64,000 nt of DNA from Candidatus Multivoradales bacterium (GTDB lineage Bacteria; Acidobacteriota; Thermoanaerobaculia; Multivoradales; Multivoraceae): assembly GCA_965223325.1 (NCBI GenBank), contig CBDCWI010000001.1, positions 1,792,001-1,856,000 of the forward strand, given 5' to 3'. How positions within the stretch are numbered: position 1 is the first letter of the stretch; each line of letters opens with the position of its first letter. The position numbers and the translations under genes are program-made. Below the pieces are notes generated by a model. That model was not told where the DNA came from. It searched no databases and saw only the letters and a list, made by a program, of their open reading frames with translations. Of the stretch, positions 29,452-36,767 are shown piece after piece.

Positions 29452-29679
29452 TCAACGTTCGGACACGTTCTCGAATCGTGAACCTCGAGAACGCTCCTTC
29501 TTGTAGTCGAAGCTGTGGTCCCATTCGAGGACCCCGAAGAGGTCGAGGATTCGTGCCTGCTCTCGTCGGGCAATGAACTCTTCAAGAGCGCGAGTCACCG
29601 CTGCTGTCTTCGTCTTCTCGCCACTGGCTTCGAGGGCCCGATTCAAAAGGTCCGGATCGAGTGCAAGGAACTCGCACAA
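29452..29679 (-). CDS. vapB: VapB-family antitoxin (N-terminus atypical)
   Basis: LALDPDLL..A...G.KTK.AAV..ALEEFI RHH-like pattern directly upstream of vapC. Only a TTG start is available. Confidence 0.75.
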   Translation of the reverse strand: MCEFLALDPDLLNRALEASGEKTKTAAVTRALEEFIARREQARILDLFGVLEWDHSFDYKKERSRGSRFENVSER

Positions 29680-29817: not shown

Positions 29818-30816
29818 TCAGTCGATCTTCGCTCCCCGACCGCCGCGCAGTGCCGCCACGGCCTCACGGGCGTACTGGCTCAGGTCTTCGGGGACGCCGT
29901 CGCCGTTGGTGTCGGCCTCGAAGCGACGGTTGGCCGGATTGGAGCGCTCGAAGTACCCGGAGCGGACGAGGTCCTGGATGAACTCGGCCTGCTGTTCGGG
30001 TTCGAGATCGACCCAGGGGACAGCGGGCACTGAGGCCTGCCAGTCGTAGCCGTGACCTTCGCGCGTCTTGTACAGCGCTTCGACGCCGAAGGAGCCACCG
30101 TTCTGGAACTGCCAGATGTGCACCATCTCGTGCGCCAGGAGATCGGTGGTCATCACCGAGTGATCCTCGAAGTAGATCGTGTTGCCGACGACGAAGGCAT
30201 CGGTCTTCGCCAGGTCTCCCCACAAGCCCTCCTTCTTCTCTTTGACGCGTACCTTGTCGTAGTCGACACTGCTCCCGAACATCGGTCGCAGGACTTCGAT
30301 CTCGGCGGCAGTCAGCTTGCGGCCGGGGGCCTCGGTTCCGAGCACTTCCTGAATGGCCTGCAGGCTACGGCGCGAGATGAAGCCGAGGTCGTTGATGGCG
30401 GTGTCGACGAAGCCATCGCGGAAGGCGATCCAGGCGTCGGAGAGACCCCCGCCCAAATCGCCATCGAGGATCTTCTTGCCCGCCTCGTGCAGGTCTTTGG
30501 CGGTATCGACAACGGTGTCGACGCTGCCTTCAATGAGGTCCTTGGTGTCGTCGAGGACGGACTTTGCGATGTCGCGAATCTTGCCGAAGAATCCGGCGCT
30601 GGTCTGCCTTTGCAGGCCGCCCGCGGCAGGTTGCGAGGGCGGCGCCGGCTCGGTTCCCGCGGGTGACTCCTTCGCCAGAGGCTCGTAGGAGTCAGCGGCG
30701 ACGAGGGCCGCCTTTCCGGTCGCCCCCGCCCCTTTTGACTCGGCATTGATCTGGCGGTGTTCCTCGAGCAGGCGCTCGATGGCAACGGACATGTCATGGG
30801 TAGCGATATAGGTCAT
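29818..30816 (-). CDS. HExxH zinc-peptidase-like protein (DUF4157-related)
   Basis: R.LT..E......FG.SVDY.KVRV, GNTIYF, LLAHEMVHIWQ and EQQAE motifs. ATG follows AGGAG. Confidence 0.7.
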   Translation of the reverse strand: MTYIATHDMSVAIERLLEEHRQINAESKGAGATGKAALVAADSYEPLAKESPAGTEPAPPSQPAAGGLQRQTSAGFFGKIRDIAKSVLDDTKDLIEGSVDTVVDTAKDLHEAGKKILDGDLGGGLSDAWIAFRDGFVDTAINDLGFISRRSLQAIQEVLGTEAPGRKLTAAEIEVLRPMFGSSVDYDKVRVKEKKEGLWGDLAKTDAFVVGNTIYFEDHSVMTTDLLAHEMVHIWQFQNGGSFGVEALYKTREGHGYDWQASVPAVPWVDLEPEQQAEFIQDLVRSGYFERSNPANRRFEADTNGDGVPEDLSQYAREAVAALRGGRGAKID

Positions 30817-30903: not shown

Positions 30904-31470
30904 CTAGACCCTCGAAAACGCCGGGTGGTAGCGAACAACCGCGGGATCTCTCGAGCCCAGAGCGGAATCGAGCGCGCCCGGCCGCAACTCCAGCACCATG
31001 AAGACGTCCTCGGGTACGTCGTACTCGCTTCGTATGTTGAAGCGCGTCGAGGGCTCGAAACCGAAGCGCGGGTAGTACTGGGGGTGGCCGAGAACGACGA
31101 CCCCATCGGTTTCCAGCTTCCGGCACAGCTCCAGGCCGCTCTGCACGAGCATCGAGCCGATACCTGAGCGCTGGTGCTGGGGTGAGACGGCCATCGGGCC
31201 GAGGCCCATGAGCGACCTACCGGGCAGTTCCCGTGCGGTCACCGGCGAGAACACGATGTGCCCCACGACTTCGCCGGAGGTCGCCTCTTCTGCGACCAGG
31301 GCGATGACCGGGTCTGCCTCGAGGCGCAACATCTCGACCAGGCGGACCTCGGCATCGTCCTCTGGTGGACCTTCCGCGGAAGGATCTGCCGCAAACGCCG
31401 CCTCGAGAATTGCGCTCACAGCGGCCTGGTCGCGGCCCTCTTCCGGTCGAATGCAAACGTCCATGACCAC
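30904..31470 (-). CDS. GNAT N-acetyltransferase (YhbS-like)
   Basis: VGHIVFSP, LGPMAV.P..QRSGIG and VVLGHPQYYPRFGF motifs. Abuts the upstream stop codon. Confidence 0.92.
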   Translation of the reverse strand: MVMDVCIRPEEGRDQAAVSAILEAAFAADPSAEGPPEDDAEVRLVEMLRLEADPVIALVAEEATSGEVVGHIVFSPVTARELPGRSLMGLGPMAVSPQHQRSGIGSMLVQSGLELCRKLETDGVVVLGHPQYYPRFGFEPSTRFNIRSEYDVPEDVFMVLELRPGALDSALGSRDPAVVRYHPAFSRV

Positions 31471-32586
31471 CTACCGCCGCCCGAGCCGCAACCCCACACT
31501 CGCACCCGCCATCACGATCACATCGGGCTCGAGCGTGCCACCTACAGCGCTCAGGTTTTGTGGCACACGGACCTGCGCTTGCAGAATCCACTGGTCTGTG
31601 AGGCGCTGCGCAACACCAACGGCGAGGATGAGGTCGGTCCTGCCGCTATTGCGCGCGTTGCCCGACTCCCAGCGTGACGGTTCGCTGTGCTCGACCTCGA
31701 CCTGTGCCTGAAACGAGGTGCGCGCTGTTCCAAGAGACGACGACAGCCCAAAGCCTGCTGAACCTCCGAAGCCGCGGCGGTAGCCCTTGTCGTTGTCGGT
31801 GAGGGCGCCGCTGCCTCCAACCCAGCCGTACGACGCGAAACGCTGGCCGCTGCGGTGATACTCGAGGCGCAACTCGGGGTTCCAGGTGCCACTTCCAAAG
31901 AAGACATGCTGATGCTCGAGGCCGCGGGAGCCACGATCGAAGGGATCTTCCTCCGTGCGGCCCGTCGGCGCACGAACGCCGACCACCAGATCGAGCAACC
32001 AGGGGCGGGCGGGAACGGTCGTTTCCGCGCCGGCAGCGCCAGGAGAAGCGCTCGCCGAACGACCCTCACTGGCTATCAACCGAAAGCGCCCCGCGAGGCT
32101 CACGTCGCCTATGCCCTCGATGGTTTCGTTGCGATGATGAATGCTGGTGAACTCGGAACGTATGGCGCCGGTTTCATCTTCGAAGGCCGCTCGAGTTTCG
32201 ACGCTGCGCAGTGGTACCTGAACCTCCAGGGCCGCCCGCTCGGTCAGGGCGTAGCTGCCGCGCACGACAACGGTGTCGAGCGACAGATCAACGTGATGGA
32301 CACGCGGCTGGTCTACGAGCGGCACGCCCGGCTCGTACTGGTCAGGATCGACCCCGTGCGACGTCTCGACGCGAGTCGACAGCCACGTCAAATCGAGCCG
32401 GAAAGCTCCGGGTTCGAGATCGACCGAGAGATGCGTCCCTCCAGCCTGGAGGTTGGGGTTCGTTCAGGCGGTTCAACCACTCGACGCCCAGGCAGCTGGA
32501 ATCAGCTGGACGAGTGCCAGGGCGACGAGGATCGGCAGAGCCGCTTTCCGCCGCGAGGGCAACGAGGGCGAGGGGGTTCTTCTCAA
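31471..32586 (-). CDS. Predicted selenoprotein: outer-membrane beta-barrel transporter-family protein with N-terminal UxxU (Sec38, Sec41), 371 aa
   Basis: TTG 32586 overlaps the upstream TGA (TTGA). Signal peptide ...IPAAWA then SSG-TGA-TA-TGA-TNPN runs in frame into ORF 31471..32391. GIGD/PTG/GSGTW motifs. SECIS-like hairpin follows. Confidence 0.8.
32434..32463 (-). promoter_or_regulatory. Putative bacterial SECIS element
   Basis: mRNA CCUCCA-GGC-UGGAGG. The loop starts 17 nt after UGA 32464-66 and 26 nt after UGA 32473-75. Confidence 0.65.
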
Positions 32587-33281
32587 CGCCTCGCCTTCTC
32601 GATCAGGCGGTCGAGCTTCTCGAAGTCGAGACCGGAAACGAACCCGACGCGGCGCGGGCCCTTCTTCTCGTGCAGATGCCAGACCTCGACATAGGGCAAA
32701 CCCGAGACTTTGGTGAGGTAGCGCTTGGCGACCTCGGAGTCCCAGTCGACGACGTTGAGCTTGCGAACGGCCAGGCTGGGGTCTTTCCCGACTCGTTCGA
32801 TCAGTCCGCGGTCGAGTTCGCGGCAAGGGCCACACCACTCGGCCCAGAAATCGAAGATGACGACCTTGCCAGCGGTAACCTCGGGCTCGATATCGGCGTC
32901 CTTGCCGTCGCGCGACAGCCAGGCCACGTCGGCGTCTTTTGGAAAGTCTGCGGGCGGCAGGTAGAAGCCCTTGCCCTTCCCGACCACGACCTCTACACCG
33001 GGGTCGGCTGCGGCGACCGCTTCCGCGATGAGTGAATCAACCGACAGCAGGCTGTCGTCGAAATCGACCAACACTTCAGCCGCCTTCAAATCGAAAGACG
33101 CGGCGTTGACTCCCGAAAGAGCTTCGAGTTGCGCGACGACCGCCGCGCCGCAGCTCTGTCAGTCGAGCGCCCGCAAAGAGAGCGTTACCTCACGGGCCGC
33201 CAGGGGCCAAGAGACCGCGAAGAACAGGATGGCTGCGACACCGGCGCGAACTCGCGCAGGGTTCAAGATGGAGACCGACAT
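32583..33281 (-). CDS. Predicted selenoprotein: exported HMA domain (UxxC, Sec41) fused to thioredoxin domain (WCGPC), 232 aa
   Basis: ATG 33281 follows GAGG. Signal peptide ...WPLAA, then VTLSLRALD-TGA-QSCGAAVVAQLEALSGV (HMA fold) in frame with ORF 32583..33089 (DFWAEWCGPC). Confidence 0.85.
33126..33158 (-). promoter_or_regulatory. Putative bacterial SECIS element
   Basis: mRNA GCGCGGC-GGUC-GUCGCGC, a 7-bp stem with a GGUC loop starting 17 nt after UGA 33159-61. Lower GAG/CUC pairs. Confidence 0.75.
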
Positions 33282-33662
33282 TCTTGGGACCTCGTATTGG
33301 GACCGCCTCGCGAACTTACCGGCGACGCAGAGCGATTGGAGCGGCAAGACGGACGTTTAGCCTAGCCGATCTACGGCGCGCTCTGAATCGCTGACTGGTG
33401 GTTCGCATGGCGGCGCGGCGGGGCGTGTTCCCGGCGAAGGCGCCGGAGACAGTGCCTGCTAGGCTGTCCCAACGTTCGAGAGTTTCAGTCGGTCGGTCCA
33501 CGGTTGATCGTGGTTTCCGATGCACGCCTCTCAGTCGACAGCTCGCGAGAAGCAACGCGGAGCACGCCTGAGAGCGCTGGCTCCATGTTCTCCTTTGCTC
33601 TTTGACCGTCTGGTTCTTCTACGCCCTCTCCGGAGGCCACCATTCGATCAGGAGTCTGAACC

Positions 33663-36600
33663 ATGAGAACACCAACCGCCCCCTGCCGCTCCACCTTCGC
33701 TTCCCTCTCTGCTCGCGCAGTGGTTCTCGCGGTTCTCGGGCTCAGCCTCCTCGTCGTCGGCCAGCCGGCATTCGCCCAGACCGCCGGCTCGATCGAGGGT
33801 GCGGTCACCAGCGTCGACGGGGCCGCCATCCTAGGGGCAACGGTGACCCTGTCAGGTGAGGCGCTCCAGGGGCCACCGCTGGTGGCGACCACGGGTGCCG
33901 ACGGGCGCTACCGCCTTTCGCCGGTACCGGCCGGGACCTATGAACTGGCCGTCGAGTCGAGTGACGGGAGCTTCACGCGACCCGAGGTGATCGTGGGTGT
34001 CAACGCTTCGCTCACCATCGACTGGACCGTCGGCCAGCAAGACACCCTCACGGTCATCGGCGAGGCTCCCCTGATCGAGGTCACCCGCTCCGACTTGGCC
34101 TCACGGGTGCCCCAGCAGGCGATCGAAAACCTGCCGCTCAACGGCCGCAACGTCGAAGACCTCGTCAACCTGGTCCCGGGCGTCAAGCCCAACCCAGCCG
34201 GCGTTGCCGACCAGCAGTTCTCGATCTTCGGTGAACGGGCAGCCGCCACCTCATTCATCGTCGATGGCGCCGATAACAACGACCCGCTCGACGGCGGCGC
34301 CTTCCAGCGCTACTCACAGGACTCGATCCAGGAGTTCGAGGTCATCACCACAGGCTACGAGGCCGAGTTCGGCAAGGCCCAGGGGGGCGTGGTCAACGTG
34401 CTCACACGCTCCGGTGGCAACGACCTCAAGGGCTCGCTCTTCTACTTCATGCGCAATGACTCCTGGGACTCTTCGAACGTCTCCGGACAAGAAGTCCCCA
34501 AGCTCGAGCGCGACCAGTATGGAGCCTCGCTCGGAGGCCGTCTGGTCGAGGACCGCGCCTACTACTTCGTTTCGGCTGAGCTGCTCGACGAGAAGCGCGG
34601 CCGCAACCTCGACTTTTCCCAGGTGCCGTCCTGGGTGCAGAACGGCCTCGCCACGCCTGGTTCTCTCAGCGAGAACTTCGGCCTCGGCCCAGAGGACGAA
34701 GGTCTGGTGGCGCTCGGCAAGATCGACCTCGTGCCCAACGACTCACACCGCCTCTCCTTCAGCTATAACCGCACCGATGACGAAGCCGCGGGCGAGATCC
34801 CCAGCGGCATCGCCGGCTCGATCGTCATGCCCAGCGGCGCTCGCACCCAGGACCGCGCGTCCGACAGCTTCACTCTGCGCGACACCTGGATCGCTGGACC
34901 GTCGATGTTTCTCGAATCGAACGCCAAGTACCTCGACGGCACGACCGGCAGCAACCTCGACCGTGCGGACCGCGGCGAGACCGTGCTGCTTCTCTTGCGC
35001 TCTGGATTCATTCAGACTGGCGCGCCGGTCGGCGGTCGCTCGGAGCGCAACATCGAGCGCCTGCAGATCGCACAGGACTTCACCTGGATCCCGCAGGGCG
35101 CAACCAACCACACGTTCAAGTTCGGCTGGGACTACACCGACACCACGCTCGACGGTTTCAACGAGGTCTGGAACGATGTCGAGTATTCGGCGGCGTTCCT
35201 CAACCCGAACGCGGCCGGCGTGATGCAGGACCTGTTCTCGCGTTTCGGCTTCGAGCAGTCGGCCGCACGCTTCTTCAACCTCTCGGCCAACCCCGACGGT
35301 CGCTTAAACCTCGATATCTCGAACGAGGACGTTGGCGTCTTCGCTCAGGACCAGTGGCAGGTGGCCGACAACGTCACCGTCAACCTCGGCCTCCGGTGGG
35401 ATCGTGCCAGCCTCTTCGGCGACGACGAAGACAACTTCGGCCCGCGCGCCGGCATCACCTGGGATATCAGCGGTGACTACCGCACGATCCTCAAGGCCTC
35501 GGCAGGCATCTTCCACGATCGCAACGCCCTCGCCGCAGCGGCCGGGGTCCCCTCAAAGGGTGGCATCTTCACTCGCAACGCCTTCGACGTCGCCCTGCCA
35601 ACACTGGGCTACGACTACTCCGACTCGCTGATCGATCTAGTCATCACCTCGGGGTTCCCGATCGGCGGCGGAGCGCGCTCGCCGGCAGAGAACCCGTCCT
35701 ATCGCGCCTTCGCTGACGCCCTGCGCGCCAACCCGCTGGCGCTCTACGACATCCTCGGCATCGCAGTCAGCGATCCATCGCGTCCGCCAACCGTGACCGC
35801 CGACAACATCCAGGCGCTTTCGGGCATGTCTCCCGACCAGGCGGTCAACCTGCTCGAAACCATGTGGCCGGGCACCGACTGGGCGTTCTTCGATGTGCCG
35901 GGCGGCTCCATTCTCGGTGACCGGGTGCTTTCGTTCCTACCTCGCGGCCCGTTGAGCACCAGTCGCAACGTCCAGGTCTACGACCGTGACGAAACGCCCA
36001 TGACCACGGCCTTCACGATCGGCGTCGAGCACCAGTGGGGCCCTGACATCACGCTGGGTCTCGCCTACGTCCACCGTGAGACCGAGGATCTACTGACGCA
36101 GCGCATCGTCAACCTCTTCGACGCCCAACCGGGCGATCCCAACTTCGGCCAAACGACCGATGGCGGAGCGCGCATCACTCAGGTGGGCTACGACGGCTTC
36201 ATCGACTACGACGGCGTGGTCCTGAGCGTGCGGCGCCCGTTCCGAGATCGCTACGGCTTCTCCTTGTCCTATACCTGGTCGGACGCCGAAGACAACCTTC
36301 TCACCGGCAACGTCGGCTCAGGCTTCAGCAACAACAACCATCCCGAGTTCGACATCGGCGAGTCCAACCTGTCGGCACCGAACGTCGCGGTCGCAAGCAT
36401 CACTTCGCTTCTACCGCTCGACTTCCGGGTCAGCGCCGTCTTGTTCCATCGAGATGGCAACGCCTTCTCACCGCGCGGCATCGTCGACACCGACGGCGAC
36501 GGGCTCGTCGACCAGCGCGACCTTTCCGTTCCACGCAACTCCTTCCGGGTCGATGACTTCACGTCGCTTGACATTCGCCTAGAGAAGCCCTTCCAGCTAC

Positions 36601-36767
36601 CGGACGGCTACGAGATCAACCTGTTGATCGACGTCTTCAACGTCACCAACGAGCGCAACGTGGCAAACGTCAACCCAGTCTCAGGACCAGACTTCGGAAC
36701 TCCCAACGAGTTCTTCCCGGGCCGCGAGATCCAGGCAGGCGTGCGTTTCTACATCGGCGGTCGCTGA
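33663..36767 (+). CDS. TonB-dependent receptor, Oar/acidobacterial type with N-terminal carboxypeptidase-regulatory-like domain
   Basis: Signal peptide, LPLNGRN, IQEFEV.T.GY.AEFG...GGVVN, QDQW, NLGLRWD and GREIQAGVRF motifs. Confidence 0.92.
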   Translation: MRTPTAPCRSTFASLSARAVVLAVLGLSLLVVGQPAFAQTAGSIEGAVTSVDGAAILGATVTLSGEALQGPPLVATTGADGRYRLSPVPAGTYELAVESSDGSFTRPEVIVGVNASLTIDWTVGQQDTLTVIGEAPLIEVTRSDLASRVPQQAIENLPLNGRNVEDLVNLVPGVKPNPAGVADQQFSIFGERAAATSFIVDGADNNDPLDGGAFQRYSQDSIQEFEVITTGYEAEFGKAQGGVVNVLTRSGGNDLKGSLFYFMRNDSWDSSNVSGQEVPKLERDQYGASLGGRLVEDRAYYFVSAELLDEKRGRNLDFSQVPSWVQNGLATPGSLSENFGLGPEDEGLVALGKIDLVPNDSHRLSFSYNRTDDEAAGEIPSGIAGSIVMPSGARTQDRASDSFTLRDTWIAGPSMFLESNAKYLDGTTGSNLDRADRGETVLLLLRSGFIQTGAPVGGRSERNIERLQIAQDFTWIPQGATNHTFKFGWDYTDTTLDGFNEVWNDVEYSAAFLNPNAAGVMQDLFSRFGFEQSAARFFNLSANPDGRLNLDISNEDVGVFAQDQWQVADNVTVNLGLRWDRASLFGDDEDNFGPRAGITWDISGDYRTILKASAGIFHDRNALAAAAGVPSKGGIFTRNAFDVALPTLGYDYSDSLIDLVITSGFPIGGGARSPAENPSYRAFADALRANPLALYDILGIAVSDPSRPPTVTADNIQALSGMSPDQAVNLLETMWPGTDWAFFDVPGGSILGDRVLSFLPRGPLSTSRNVQVYDRDETPMTTAFTIGVEHQWGPDITLGLAYVHRETEDLLTQRIVNLFDAQPGDPNFGQTTDGGARITQVGYDGFIDYDGVVLSVRRPFRDRYGFSLSYTWSDAEDNLLTGNVGSGFSNNNHPEFDIGESNLSAPNVAVASITSLLPLDFRVSAVLFHRDGNAFSPRGIVDTDGDGLVDQRDLSVPRNSFRVDDFTSLDIRLEKPFQLPDGYEINLLIDVFNVTNERNVANVNPVSGPDFGTPNEFFPGREIQAGVRFYIGGR

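Follow-up and report, generated by a model that had tools for sequence, protein, structure and literature searches.

The minus strand of a 64,000-nucleotide stretch of the genome of a Candidatus Multivoradales bacterium (hereafter the window) carries a two-gene operon in which three UGA codons are, almost beyond doubt, decoded as selenocysteine (Sec), aided by hairpins in the coding sequence downstream of these codons. The first gene, gene A, specifies a periplasmic protein composed of an HMA domain and a thioredoxin domain, in which the first metal-binding cysteine of the HMA domain is replaced by Sec (UQSC). The second, gene B, specifies an outer-membrane beta-barrel that, as judged from its predicted structure, has 12 strands and is of the COG4313/FapF structural type. 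An initial annotation of this DNA had taken a local view of the operon. The present analysis leads to a wider view, namely that the barrel and its thioredoxin partner define a large selenoprotein family that has no annotation.

In the open reading frame (ORF) list made with translation table 11, the minus strand of this region is broken up into the fragments 33159..33347, 32583..33089, 32473..32838 and 31471..32391. As the initial annotation had proposed, these pieces resolve into two genes, each with a signal-peptide-like start, once the three TGA codons are read through: gene A becomes a single frame with one internal Sec (U41) and a TGA stop, and gene B a frame with two (U38 and U41) and a TAG stop (Table 1). 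By eye, signal-peptide-like segments can be read in the N-terminus of gene A (MSVSILNPARVRAGVAAILFFAVSWPLAAREVTLSLRALDUQSCG) and in the N-terminal stretch of gene B (ALPILVALALVQLIPAAWASSGUTAUTNPNL). The junctions had also been placed correctly. Gene B begins with a TTG that shares two bases with the TGA stop of gene A, the junction reading TTGA (32586-32583); a second in-frame TTG at 32562 is an equally possible start. The ORF of a GNAT acetyltransferase begins at 31470, the base next to the TAG stop of the barrel gene (31473-31471). The G+C content of the region is 0.64-0.65, similar to that of its flanks, and there is no anomaly in composition.

Part of the case for Sec decoding comes from homologues of both genes. 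A six-frame search of 60 relatives detected the barrel in two genomes, designated G003 and G010, in which it is 61% and 40% identical to the window protein, respectively, and contains exactly two in-frame TGA codons. G003 retains the TGA in the HMA domain (LTUQSCG) and reads STGUTAUTNPNL in the barrel; G010 has Cys for Sec in the HMA domain (ECRTCG) and GSSUPGUSNPNL in the barrel. From a one-genome-per-species scan we obtained 227 stretches encoding barrel relatives, and 80 of these were kept as loci; adding the locus of the window itself and those of G003 and G010 gave a set of 83. In 81 of the 83 loci a signal-peptide-like segment is followed by the motif [U/C]xx[U/C]-x-N-P-(N/S/T)-(L/M), which occurs as UxxU in 59 loci, as CxxU in 13, as CxxC in 9 and as UxxC in none. 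The two remaining loci are one that is cut at a contig end and one with a lone Cys, which occupies the second position (GQATCSNPGLP). Across many assemblies, 72 of the 81 loci thus have TGA at the motif codons, and the others have Cys codons there. Full-length barrels of the Cys form are also present in the protein databases, for example AEACAGCSNPNLP, as are proteins with CAGCSNPNLP. The Sec of the HMA domain of gene A aligns with Cys in 22 homologues, namely that of G010 and 21 further ones. Pairs of Sec and Cys homologues therefore exist at all three codons, in agreement with the earlier proposal that each TGA occupies a Cys position of a CxxC-type motif. The comparison also shows that the HMA Sec is a local peculiarity of this genome and G003, whereas the Sec pair of the barrel is a widespread feature. 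In G010 (L023 2830-2930, minus strand) the HMA and thioredoxin parts of the gene A homologue were observed in different frames, with the switch at a run of five A residues (tgtgaaaaaggcc); this reflects either an indel in the assembly or a genuine frameshift.

The genome (6.69 Mb in 2 contigs, 98.2% complete) was surveyed for the Sec machinery, the search for which had been suggested in the initial annotation. The machinery is complete, all four components scoring above their curated cut-offs: selA with 369.2 bits, selB with 296.9 bits (327.4 when its C-terminal piece is included; cut-off 242.25), selD with 222.8 bits (cut-off 125) and the tRNA for Sec (selC) with 71.9 bits (cut-off 47), the last being identified by ARAGORN as tRNA-SeC with anticodon tca. 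Across the family, selA was detected in 11 of 11 tested genomes with Sec forms and in 1 of 8 genomes with CxxC forms only; since many of the tested genomes are metagenome bins, a missing selA does not prove absence. The possibility that reads would have TGC or TGG at these codons had been raised as well. Per-run contig assemblies from three runs of one study, which may be the source of this DNA, cover positions 30904-33400 without a single differing letter, and a run from a second study covers the region partially, the TGA codons lying outside the covered parts. The notion that the TGAs are real stops, sequencing errors or signs of decay and that the region consists of gene fragments can point to the broken ORF track and to the databases, in which the barrel appears as a protein of approximately 300 amino acids starting past the TGAs, but it is extremely improbable and already contradicted by the recurrence of TGA or Cys at exactly these codons, the signal peptide upstream of them, the identical assemblies and the Sec machinery. 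With all evidence combined, one can for practical purposes exclude that the genes are pseudogenes or that the TGAs are sequencing errors or ordinary stops.

A bacterial Sec insertion sequence (bSECIS) is a stem-loop just downstream of a UGA codon, with an apical loop at a distance of approximately 16-37 nucleotides (nt) and a G in the loop. The hairpins of the operon, each with a G-leading loop 17 nt from the nearest UGA, were found as they had been described, the loop of gene A being GGUC, and the one of gene B gains support from its homologues. In Sec-form barrels a spacer of 10-11 nt after the second UGA is followed by a hairpin, such as ACCUCCC-GGUC-GGGAGGU, ACCUCC-CGGGY-GGAGGU, ACCUGCC-GGUC-GGCGGGU or CGCUCCC-GGUC-GGGGGCG, the loop of which starts at nt 17-19 after the second UGA and consists of GGUC (the commonest, 29), CGGGY or GGC. 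Perfect hairpins of at least 5 base pairs (bp) starting at +9 to +15 are present in 64 of the 72 Sec forms and in 2 of the 9 CxxC forms, and 7 of the 8 remaining Sec forms have the same hairpin with one bulged A. When at least 6 bp are demanded, these numbers become 57 of 72 against 0 of 9. For 39 sequences with a GGUC loop, which were chosen by their loop letters and not by pairing, 89.1% of the cells pair, compared to 41-68% when the 3' partner is slid. Compensatory changes on both sides occur in 3 of the 7 pairs (21 cells), and the covariation score of 0.310, compared to 0.135 for shuffled alignments, was reached in 0 of 500 shuffles. Some of these changes, such as CUC/GGG to CUG/GGC, do not alter the encoded amino acids. 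The hairpin of gene A is the same in G003 while its flanks differ, and nothing comparable was found at that place in the 21 Cys-form HMA genes. We also observed that the barrel has a single hairpin, canonically spaced relative to the second UGA, which apparently serves the first UGA 9 nt further upstream as well.

Several observations weigh against this reading of the codons and hairpins. The synonymous-codon resampling gave a moderate signal only, with a mean z of -1.31 and 23 of 72 Sec forms at p<=0.05 (z -0.34 and 1 of 9 for the CxxC forms). This modest outcome implies that coding for the conserved peptide NPNLP(G/V)G already accounts for much of the hairpin. When the two hairpins of the window, which lie in G+C-rich sequence, were folded as single sequences, their energies were no better than those of shuffles (z -0.26 and +0.66), so that evidence beyond chance comes from the homologues. 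For the gene A hairpin the support from covariation is almost nil, because just two HMA Sec forms exist. Moreover, one of the genomes with CxxC forms only does have selA, and among the RNA runs on record none covers the region.

The initial annotation had proposed to test whether homologues keep the two genes together. In a tblastn search with the thioredoxin part of gene A, 75 of the 83 loci had a thioredoxin adjacent to the barrel, and 6 of the 8 misses are at contig ends. The thioredoxin occurs in two positions, either in a gene that ends just before the barrel start, its motif lying 308-382 nt upstream, or fused in frame to the C-terminus of the barrel, its motif lying 1062-1362 nt downstream. 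The 73 loci that could be evaluated comprise 48 stand-alone barrels of 323-361 amino acids and 25 barrel-thioredoxin fusions of 459-906 amino acids. Among 34 database representatives of at least 370 amino acids, 29 have a Thioredoxin domain and 6 of them a Cupredoxin_1 domain as well. Barrel and thioredoxin are therefore the conserved core of the system, and they are very probably functionally coupled. In gene A itself both domains proposed earlier scored above their Pfam cut-offs, HMA (PF00403) with 32.6 bits (cut-off 24.8, residues 34-89) and Thioredoxin (PF00085) with 31.4 bits (cut-off 23.5, residues 134-201). The W and both C residues of the WCGPC motif are invariant in an alignment of 41 sequences. 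Gene A reached 41.9 bits with the TrxA equivalog model, which has a cut-off of 96.8, and is thus a protein with a thioredoxin-fold domain and not TrxA itself.

Around this core, the modules attached to the thioredoxin vary. An N-terminal HMA domain was detected by tblastn in 19 of 83 loci, and a doubled EHxVPxxxCxxC(H/N)P module in 16, one example of which has a lipoprotein-like signal. A C-terminal cupredoxin-like domain (Cupredoxin_1) with a conserved pattern of two Cys and Met-x-Met is present in 8 of the 10 longest fusions, and in the fusion forms His-rich linkers join the barrel to the thioredoxin. We noted in addition that the stand-alone barrels of the Thermoanaerobaculia type (L024-L027, P0009/P0011) end in acidic, His-rich tails, for example HTHDEGDEGHEEDDH; these tails and the linkers would fit metal binding. 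The neighbouring genes include a CusA/CzcA-family RND efflux pump (1203 bits) in 7 loci, and a MerR-family metal regulator, a CzcB-like adaptor and a TolC-like protein in 4 loci each, while a fragment of a multicopper oxidase lies directly upstream of the pair in G010. A hybrid histidine kinase was found near the barrel in 8 loci; this neighbour was judged incidental, as were an alpha/beta hydrolase, a cyclophilin, a glycosyl hydrolase and a sigma-54 activator. Most of the top-ranking neighbour clusters turned out to be shadow ORFs on the strand opposite the barrel and thioredoxin genes, which are rich in G+C, and only small clusters, of 4-8 loci, are real neighbours.

The designation of gene B as an outer-membrane beta-barrel, which had been made from the letters of the sequence, agrees with structure prediction. 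An AF2 model based on an alignment of 17 sequences (pLDDT 78.7, pTM 0.77) has strands consistent with a 12-strand barrel, and Foldseek searches with this model returned FapF first (E 2.9e-12) and the COG4313 channel 4rl8 next (E 9.3e-11, TM 0.69 on the target), at identities of 13-15%. COG4313/PF13557 (Phenol_MetA_deg) channels (PDB 4rl8) and FapF (PDB 5o65/5o67) share with gene B the 12-strand barrel and an N-terminal extension. The sequence of gene B gave no Pfam match at E<=0.1, PF13557 included, and PF13557 is reached by a minority of the barrel homologues (3 of 26 and 2 of 34). The family differs from COG4313 channels and FapF in its own [U/C]xx[U/C]-NPNL N-terminus, in the motifs IHHR(N/D)ET, TEEDPF and HQH and in its thioredoxin partner; we know of no description of such an N-terminus, such His/acidic motifs or such a partner for either of them. 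Two alignments, of 17 and 49 sequences, have H77, H97, H150, H151, R152, G158 and D161 as invariant residues; E154, H225 and H227 are invariant in the former and at least 90% conserved in the latter, and E212 is invariant in the 17-sequence alignment only. These residues build the motifs IHHR(N/D)ET, TEEDPF and HQHxxFGxGT, which according to the model would lie in long loops between strands 3-4 and 5-6. A reading of the first Cys or Sec as a lipoprotein cysteine was rejected as a general rule, the context here being AWA|SSGU and elsewhere a P preceding the first U. A subgroup of barrels of the Myxococcaceae/Archangium type (L054, L064, L065, L069, L077, L081, L088-L090, L092, L095, L102, L103) has an extra Cys pair, CPDIGP(I/V)C, approximately 35 residues past the N-terminal motif; this pair is absent from the window's barrel.

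A profile search of 1.84 billion representative proteins yielded 1333 barrel matches at E<=1e-3, 532 at 1e-10 and 287 at 1e-30. The family therefore contains at least 287 clusters at 50% identity (E<=1e-30), mainly from Myxococcota and Acidobacteriota. Only 11 of the best 149 representatives that were retrieved carry an N-terminal CxxC-NPNL motif; the other 138 lack it, most of them starting shortly past the position of the UGAs, because the gene calls were cut at these codons. Every source name that we saw for family members was "hypothetical protein", and an Atlas look-up likewise returned clusters of hypothetical proteins, mainly from Myxococcota. Within the genome's own phylum the barrel is rare, being found in 4 of 400 other genomes sampled (E<=1e-10), three of these with two TGAs, and it was not found in the single genome of the same genus that was searched.

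Based on the present data, the best explanation overall, which we regard as rather likely, is that barrel and thioredoxin form a Sec-based system that handles a copper-type soft metal in the cell envelope. For soft-metal handling as such, the gene context tips the balance slightly in favour. According to this model, the thioredoxin would keep the N-terminal diselenol reduced in the oxidising periplasm, drawing electrons through a DsbD-type membrane protein, one of which (DsbD_TM) is encoded elsewhere in the genome. The reduced U/C pair would then bind a soft metal, most likely Cu(I) and possibly Ag(I) or Hg(II), which it may receive from the HMA, cupredoxin-like or Cys-rich module that the thioredoxin carries. 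From there the metal would enter the barrel, where the conserved His/Glu/Asp loops could line a path across the outer membrane. Export for detoxification would be the likelier direction of transport, and is itself put forward as a doubtful point. Since the number of strands is even, both termini of the barrel would face the periplasm, which would place the thioredoxin beside the N-terminal diselenol; gene fusion and topology thus suggest that it contacts the UxxU tip. The second position of the motif is presumably the working residue, because it is always Sec when any Sec is present and provides the sole thiol in the single-Cys form. The UGA of this position is also the one at the canonical distance from the hairpin.

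Some features of the proposed system have counterparts elsewhere. TlpA, together with ScoI and CoxB, exemplifies periplasmic thioredoxin-like reductants that keep the cysteines of copper chaperones reduced. The analogy with TlpA and ScoI is mechanistic, in that a pair of metal-binding Cys residues would have an exported thioredoxin-fold protein of its own; unlike in the case of TlpA, the client here would be an outer-membrane barrel with Sec, to which the thioredoxin is often fused. The TlpA model gave 25.1 bits for gene A and 28 bits for one fusion protein, both far below its cut-off of 230. PcoB/CopB, which operate with the multicopper oxidase PcoA/CopA, offer a possible functional analogy as outer-membrane barrels associated with periplasmic copper proteins. 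No sequence relation of gene B to PcoB/CopB was detected, the Pfam scan of the barrel being empty, and to our knowledge PcoB/CopB have neither a thioredoxin partner nor Sec.

A fairly unlikely alternative that fares best among the competing functions is that the barrel serves as an outer-membrane redox device and not as a metal channel, passing electrons from the thioredoxin to the N-terminal diselenide, which would be plugged into the barrel beside the conserved His cluster and reduce a substrate. Its substrates at or beyond the outer membrane could be peroxide, hypochlorite, selenite, tellurite, or Cu(II)/Hg(II) in a detoxifying reduction. The invariant partner is, after all, a thioredoxin with the classic WCxPC reductase motif, while metal modules occur in part of the loci only, and a catalytic site might be built from the invariant His, Arg and Glu residues of the family. 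Moreover, according to section 7 of the review PMC13188914, most known selenoproteins are oxidoreductases with UxxC or CxxU. However, the HMA, cupredoxin-like Cys/Met and Cys-rich additions and the efflux and MerR-type neighbours point to metal, there is no known redox cofactor domain, and the homologue with a single Cys fits a ligand or a single nucleophile and not a dithiol/disulfide cycle.

The same anatomy as in the soft-metal model would equally serve import of copper, or another scarce soft metal, for periplasmic and membrane cuproenzymes, with the Sec pair capturing the metal at high affinity and a chaperone, the HMA or cupredoxin module, receiving it. We consider this improbable: the TlpA-ScoI precedent in cuproenzyme assembly, along with the weak TlpA match of one fusion, and the absence of an efflux or resistance gene near the operon in the window speak for it, but the informative neighbours at other loci are of the resistance type, namely CusA/CzcA efflux pumps, MerR-family regulators and a multicopper oxidase of the copper-resistance type. 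A further reading, in which the barrel acts as a plain channel of the COG4313 type for hydrophobic compounds and the Cys/Sec pair only forms a structural or regulatory cross-link, is very improbable; the fold match to 4rl8 and the PF13557 matches of a few homologues would be accounted for, but the window barrel has no such Pfam match, and a structural disulfide does not explain why costly Sec was recruited repeatedly, why a thioredoxin is always needed as partner or fusion, or why metal modules are present.

The soft-metal model has its own weak points. Its steps of metal binding, transport and redox chemistry are drawn from gene context, and the majority of the 83 loci show no gene for efflux or regulation within approximately 3.5 kb. 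The genes that flank the operon in the window encode an Oar-like TonB-type receptor (opposite strand), an ABC transporter, a peptidase and a kinase, and no further metal gene is among them. The structural relatives do not transport metals either, COG4313 proteins carrying hydrophobic molecules and FapF secreting amyloid subunits. Finally, the model is unreliable for residues 1-52, among which the UxxU motif lies.

Table 1. Positions of the operon, its Sec codons, hairpins and motifs, and the adjoining GNAT gene in the window.
Feature	Position	Strand	Basis or remark
Gene A, exported HMA(UxxC)-thioredoxin(WCGPC) selenoprotein, 232 aa	32583..33281	-	Read-through translation and Pfam
Gene A Sec codon U41, first Cys position of HMA CxxC (LDUQSCG)	33159..33161	-	
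Gene A bSECIS-type hairpin GCGCGGC-GGUC-GUCGCGC	33131..33148	-	Extended stem 33118-33157
Gene A thioredoxin active-site motif WCGPC, residues 149-153	32823..32837	-	
Gene B, exported 12-strand beta-barrel selenoprotein (predicted fold), 371 aa	31471..32586	-	Read-through, AF2, Foldseek
Gene B UxxU motif U38-T-A-U41	32464..32475	-	Directly after predicted cleavage site AWA|SSG
Gene B U38 codon	32475-32473	-	In-frame TGA
Gene B U41 codon	32466-32464	-	In-frame TGA
Gene B bSECIS-type hairpin CCUCCA-GGC-UGGAGG	32438..32452	-	11 nt past second UGA
Conserved His/acidic motifs of the barrel family	31885..32142	-	Invariant or near-invariant residues in the barrel alignments
Gene B IHHRNET motif	32122-32142	-	
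Gene B TEEDPF motif	31939-31956	-	
Gene B HQHVFFGSGT motif	31885-31914	-	
GNAT acetyltransferase gene abutting the barrel stop	30904..31470	-	Pfam Acetyltransf_1

The GNAT gene had been counted as part of the selenoprotein system in the initial annotation, and this part of the proposal did not hold. Its ORF is well recognised by Pfam Acetyltransf_1 (37 bits, cut-off 20.7), but in a tblastn search none of the 82 other loci had a GNAT gene adjacent to its barrel, which leaves the window's own locus as the only one among 83. The gene is probably co-transcribed here, yet it is a bystander and not a conserved member of the system. Just downstream of it, a 332-amino-acid ORF (29818-30816, minus strand) contains an HExxH motif (HEMVHIWQ) and gives a weak match to eCIS_core (23.4 bits, cut-off 22). 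Another ORF, of 75 amino acids (29452-29679, minus strand; TKTAAVTRALEEFIARREQARILDLFG), resembles, by eye, a small ribbon-helix-helix antitoxin. Divergent from gene A, the TonB-type (Oar-like) receptor of 1034 amino acids (33663-36767, plus strand; OMP_b-brl_4, 217 bits) carries an N-terminal carboxypeptidase-regulatory-like domain; no link of this receptor with the selenoprotein pair was seen in other loci.

The family was also compared with the selenoproteins described so far, for which we made use of Table 1 of PMC13188914 (2026), with 119 prokaryotic selenoprotein families and subfamilies, and of parts of PMC9312934. Outer-membrane selenoproteins in that table are a TonB receptor of the FCYXU type (NF049945) and the GSU2204/MtrB-PioB barrel (NF041027). 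Both resemble gene B in having Sec in an outer-membrane barrel, but they have other folds and sizes and one Sec, whereas gene B has an N-terminal UxxU; a COG4313-like barrel with UxxU is absent from the table. The HMA-type Sec families that it lists, the cation ATPase (UxxC) and the NF041115 family (UxxU), share with gene A the replacement of Cys by Sec in the HMA CxxC loop. Unlike these, gene A is an exported HMA-thioredoxin fusion, an architecture that the table does not contain, and its UxxC motif differs from the UxxU of NF041115. Gene A matches NF041115 (27.2 bits, cut-off 95) and NF045683 (17.8 bits, cut-off 375) weakly and far below both cut-offs. An NCBIfam scan yielded no model at its cut-off for either gene, and for gene B no family at E<=0.1. 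A full-text literature search returned no paper describing the barrel family; supplementary tables were outside its scope, and an earlier listing there is possible.

The truncation of these barrels by gene callers means that the signal peptide and the active motif are missing from the public protein sets. If the gene models were corrected, hundreds of selenoproteins would be gained in Myxococcota, Acidobacteriota and other groups. Taken as a whole, this would be a large family that we have not found described, made up of barrels with an N-terminal diselenol wired to a dedicated thioredoxin and to interchangeable soft-metal modules, and, as a tentative proposal, selenium in it might act as a metal-handling or electron-passing gate at the outer membrane. 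We know of no selenoprotein to which such a role across the outer membrane has been ascribed, and selenoproteins are mostly regarded as cytoplasmic redox enzymes. The absence of UxxC from 81 loci, compared to 13 loci with CxxU, could provide a natural dataset on the spacing tolerance of bacterial Sec insertion. With Sec placed at the tip of a protein of the outer membrane, within the oxidising envelope, and linked to a thioredoxin and to domains of the copper type, the family is a case in which it may be asked why cells pay for Sec over Cys when they handle metals or carry out redox chemistry in the envelope, and the UxxU, CxxU and CxxC forms of this family are ready-made natural comparisons for that question.

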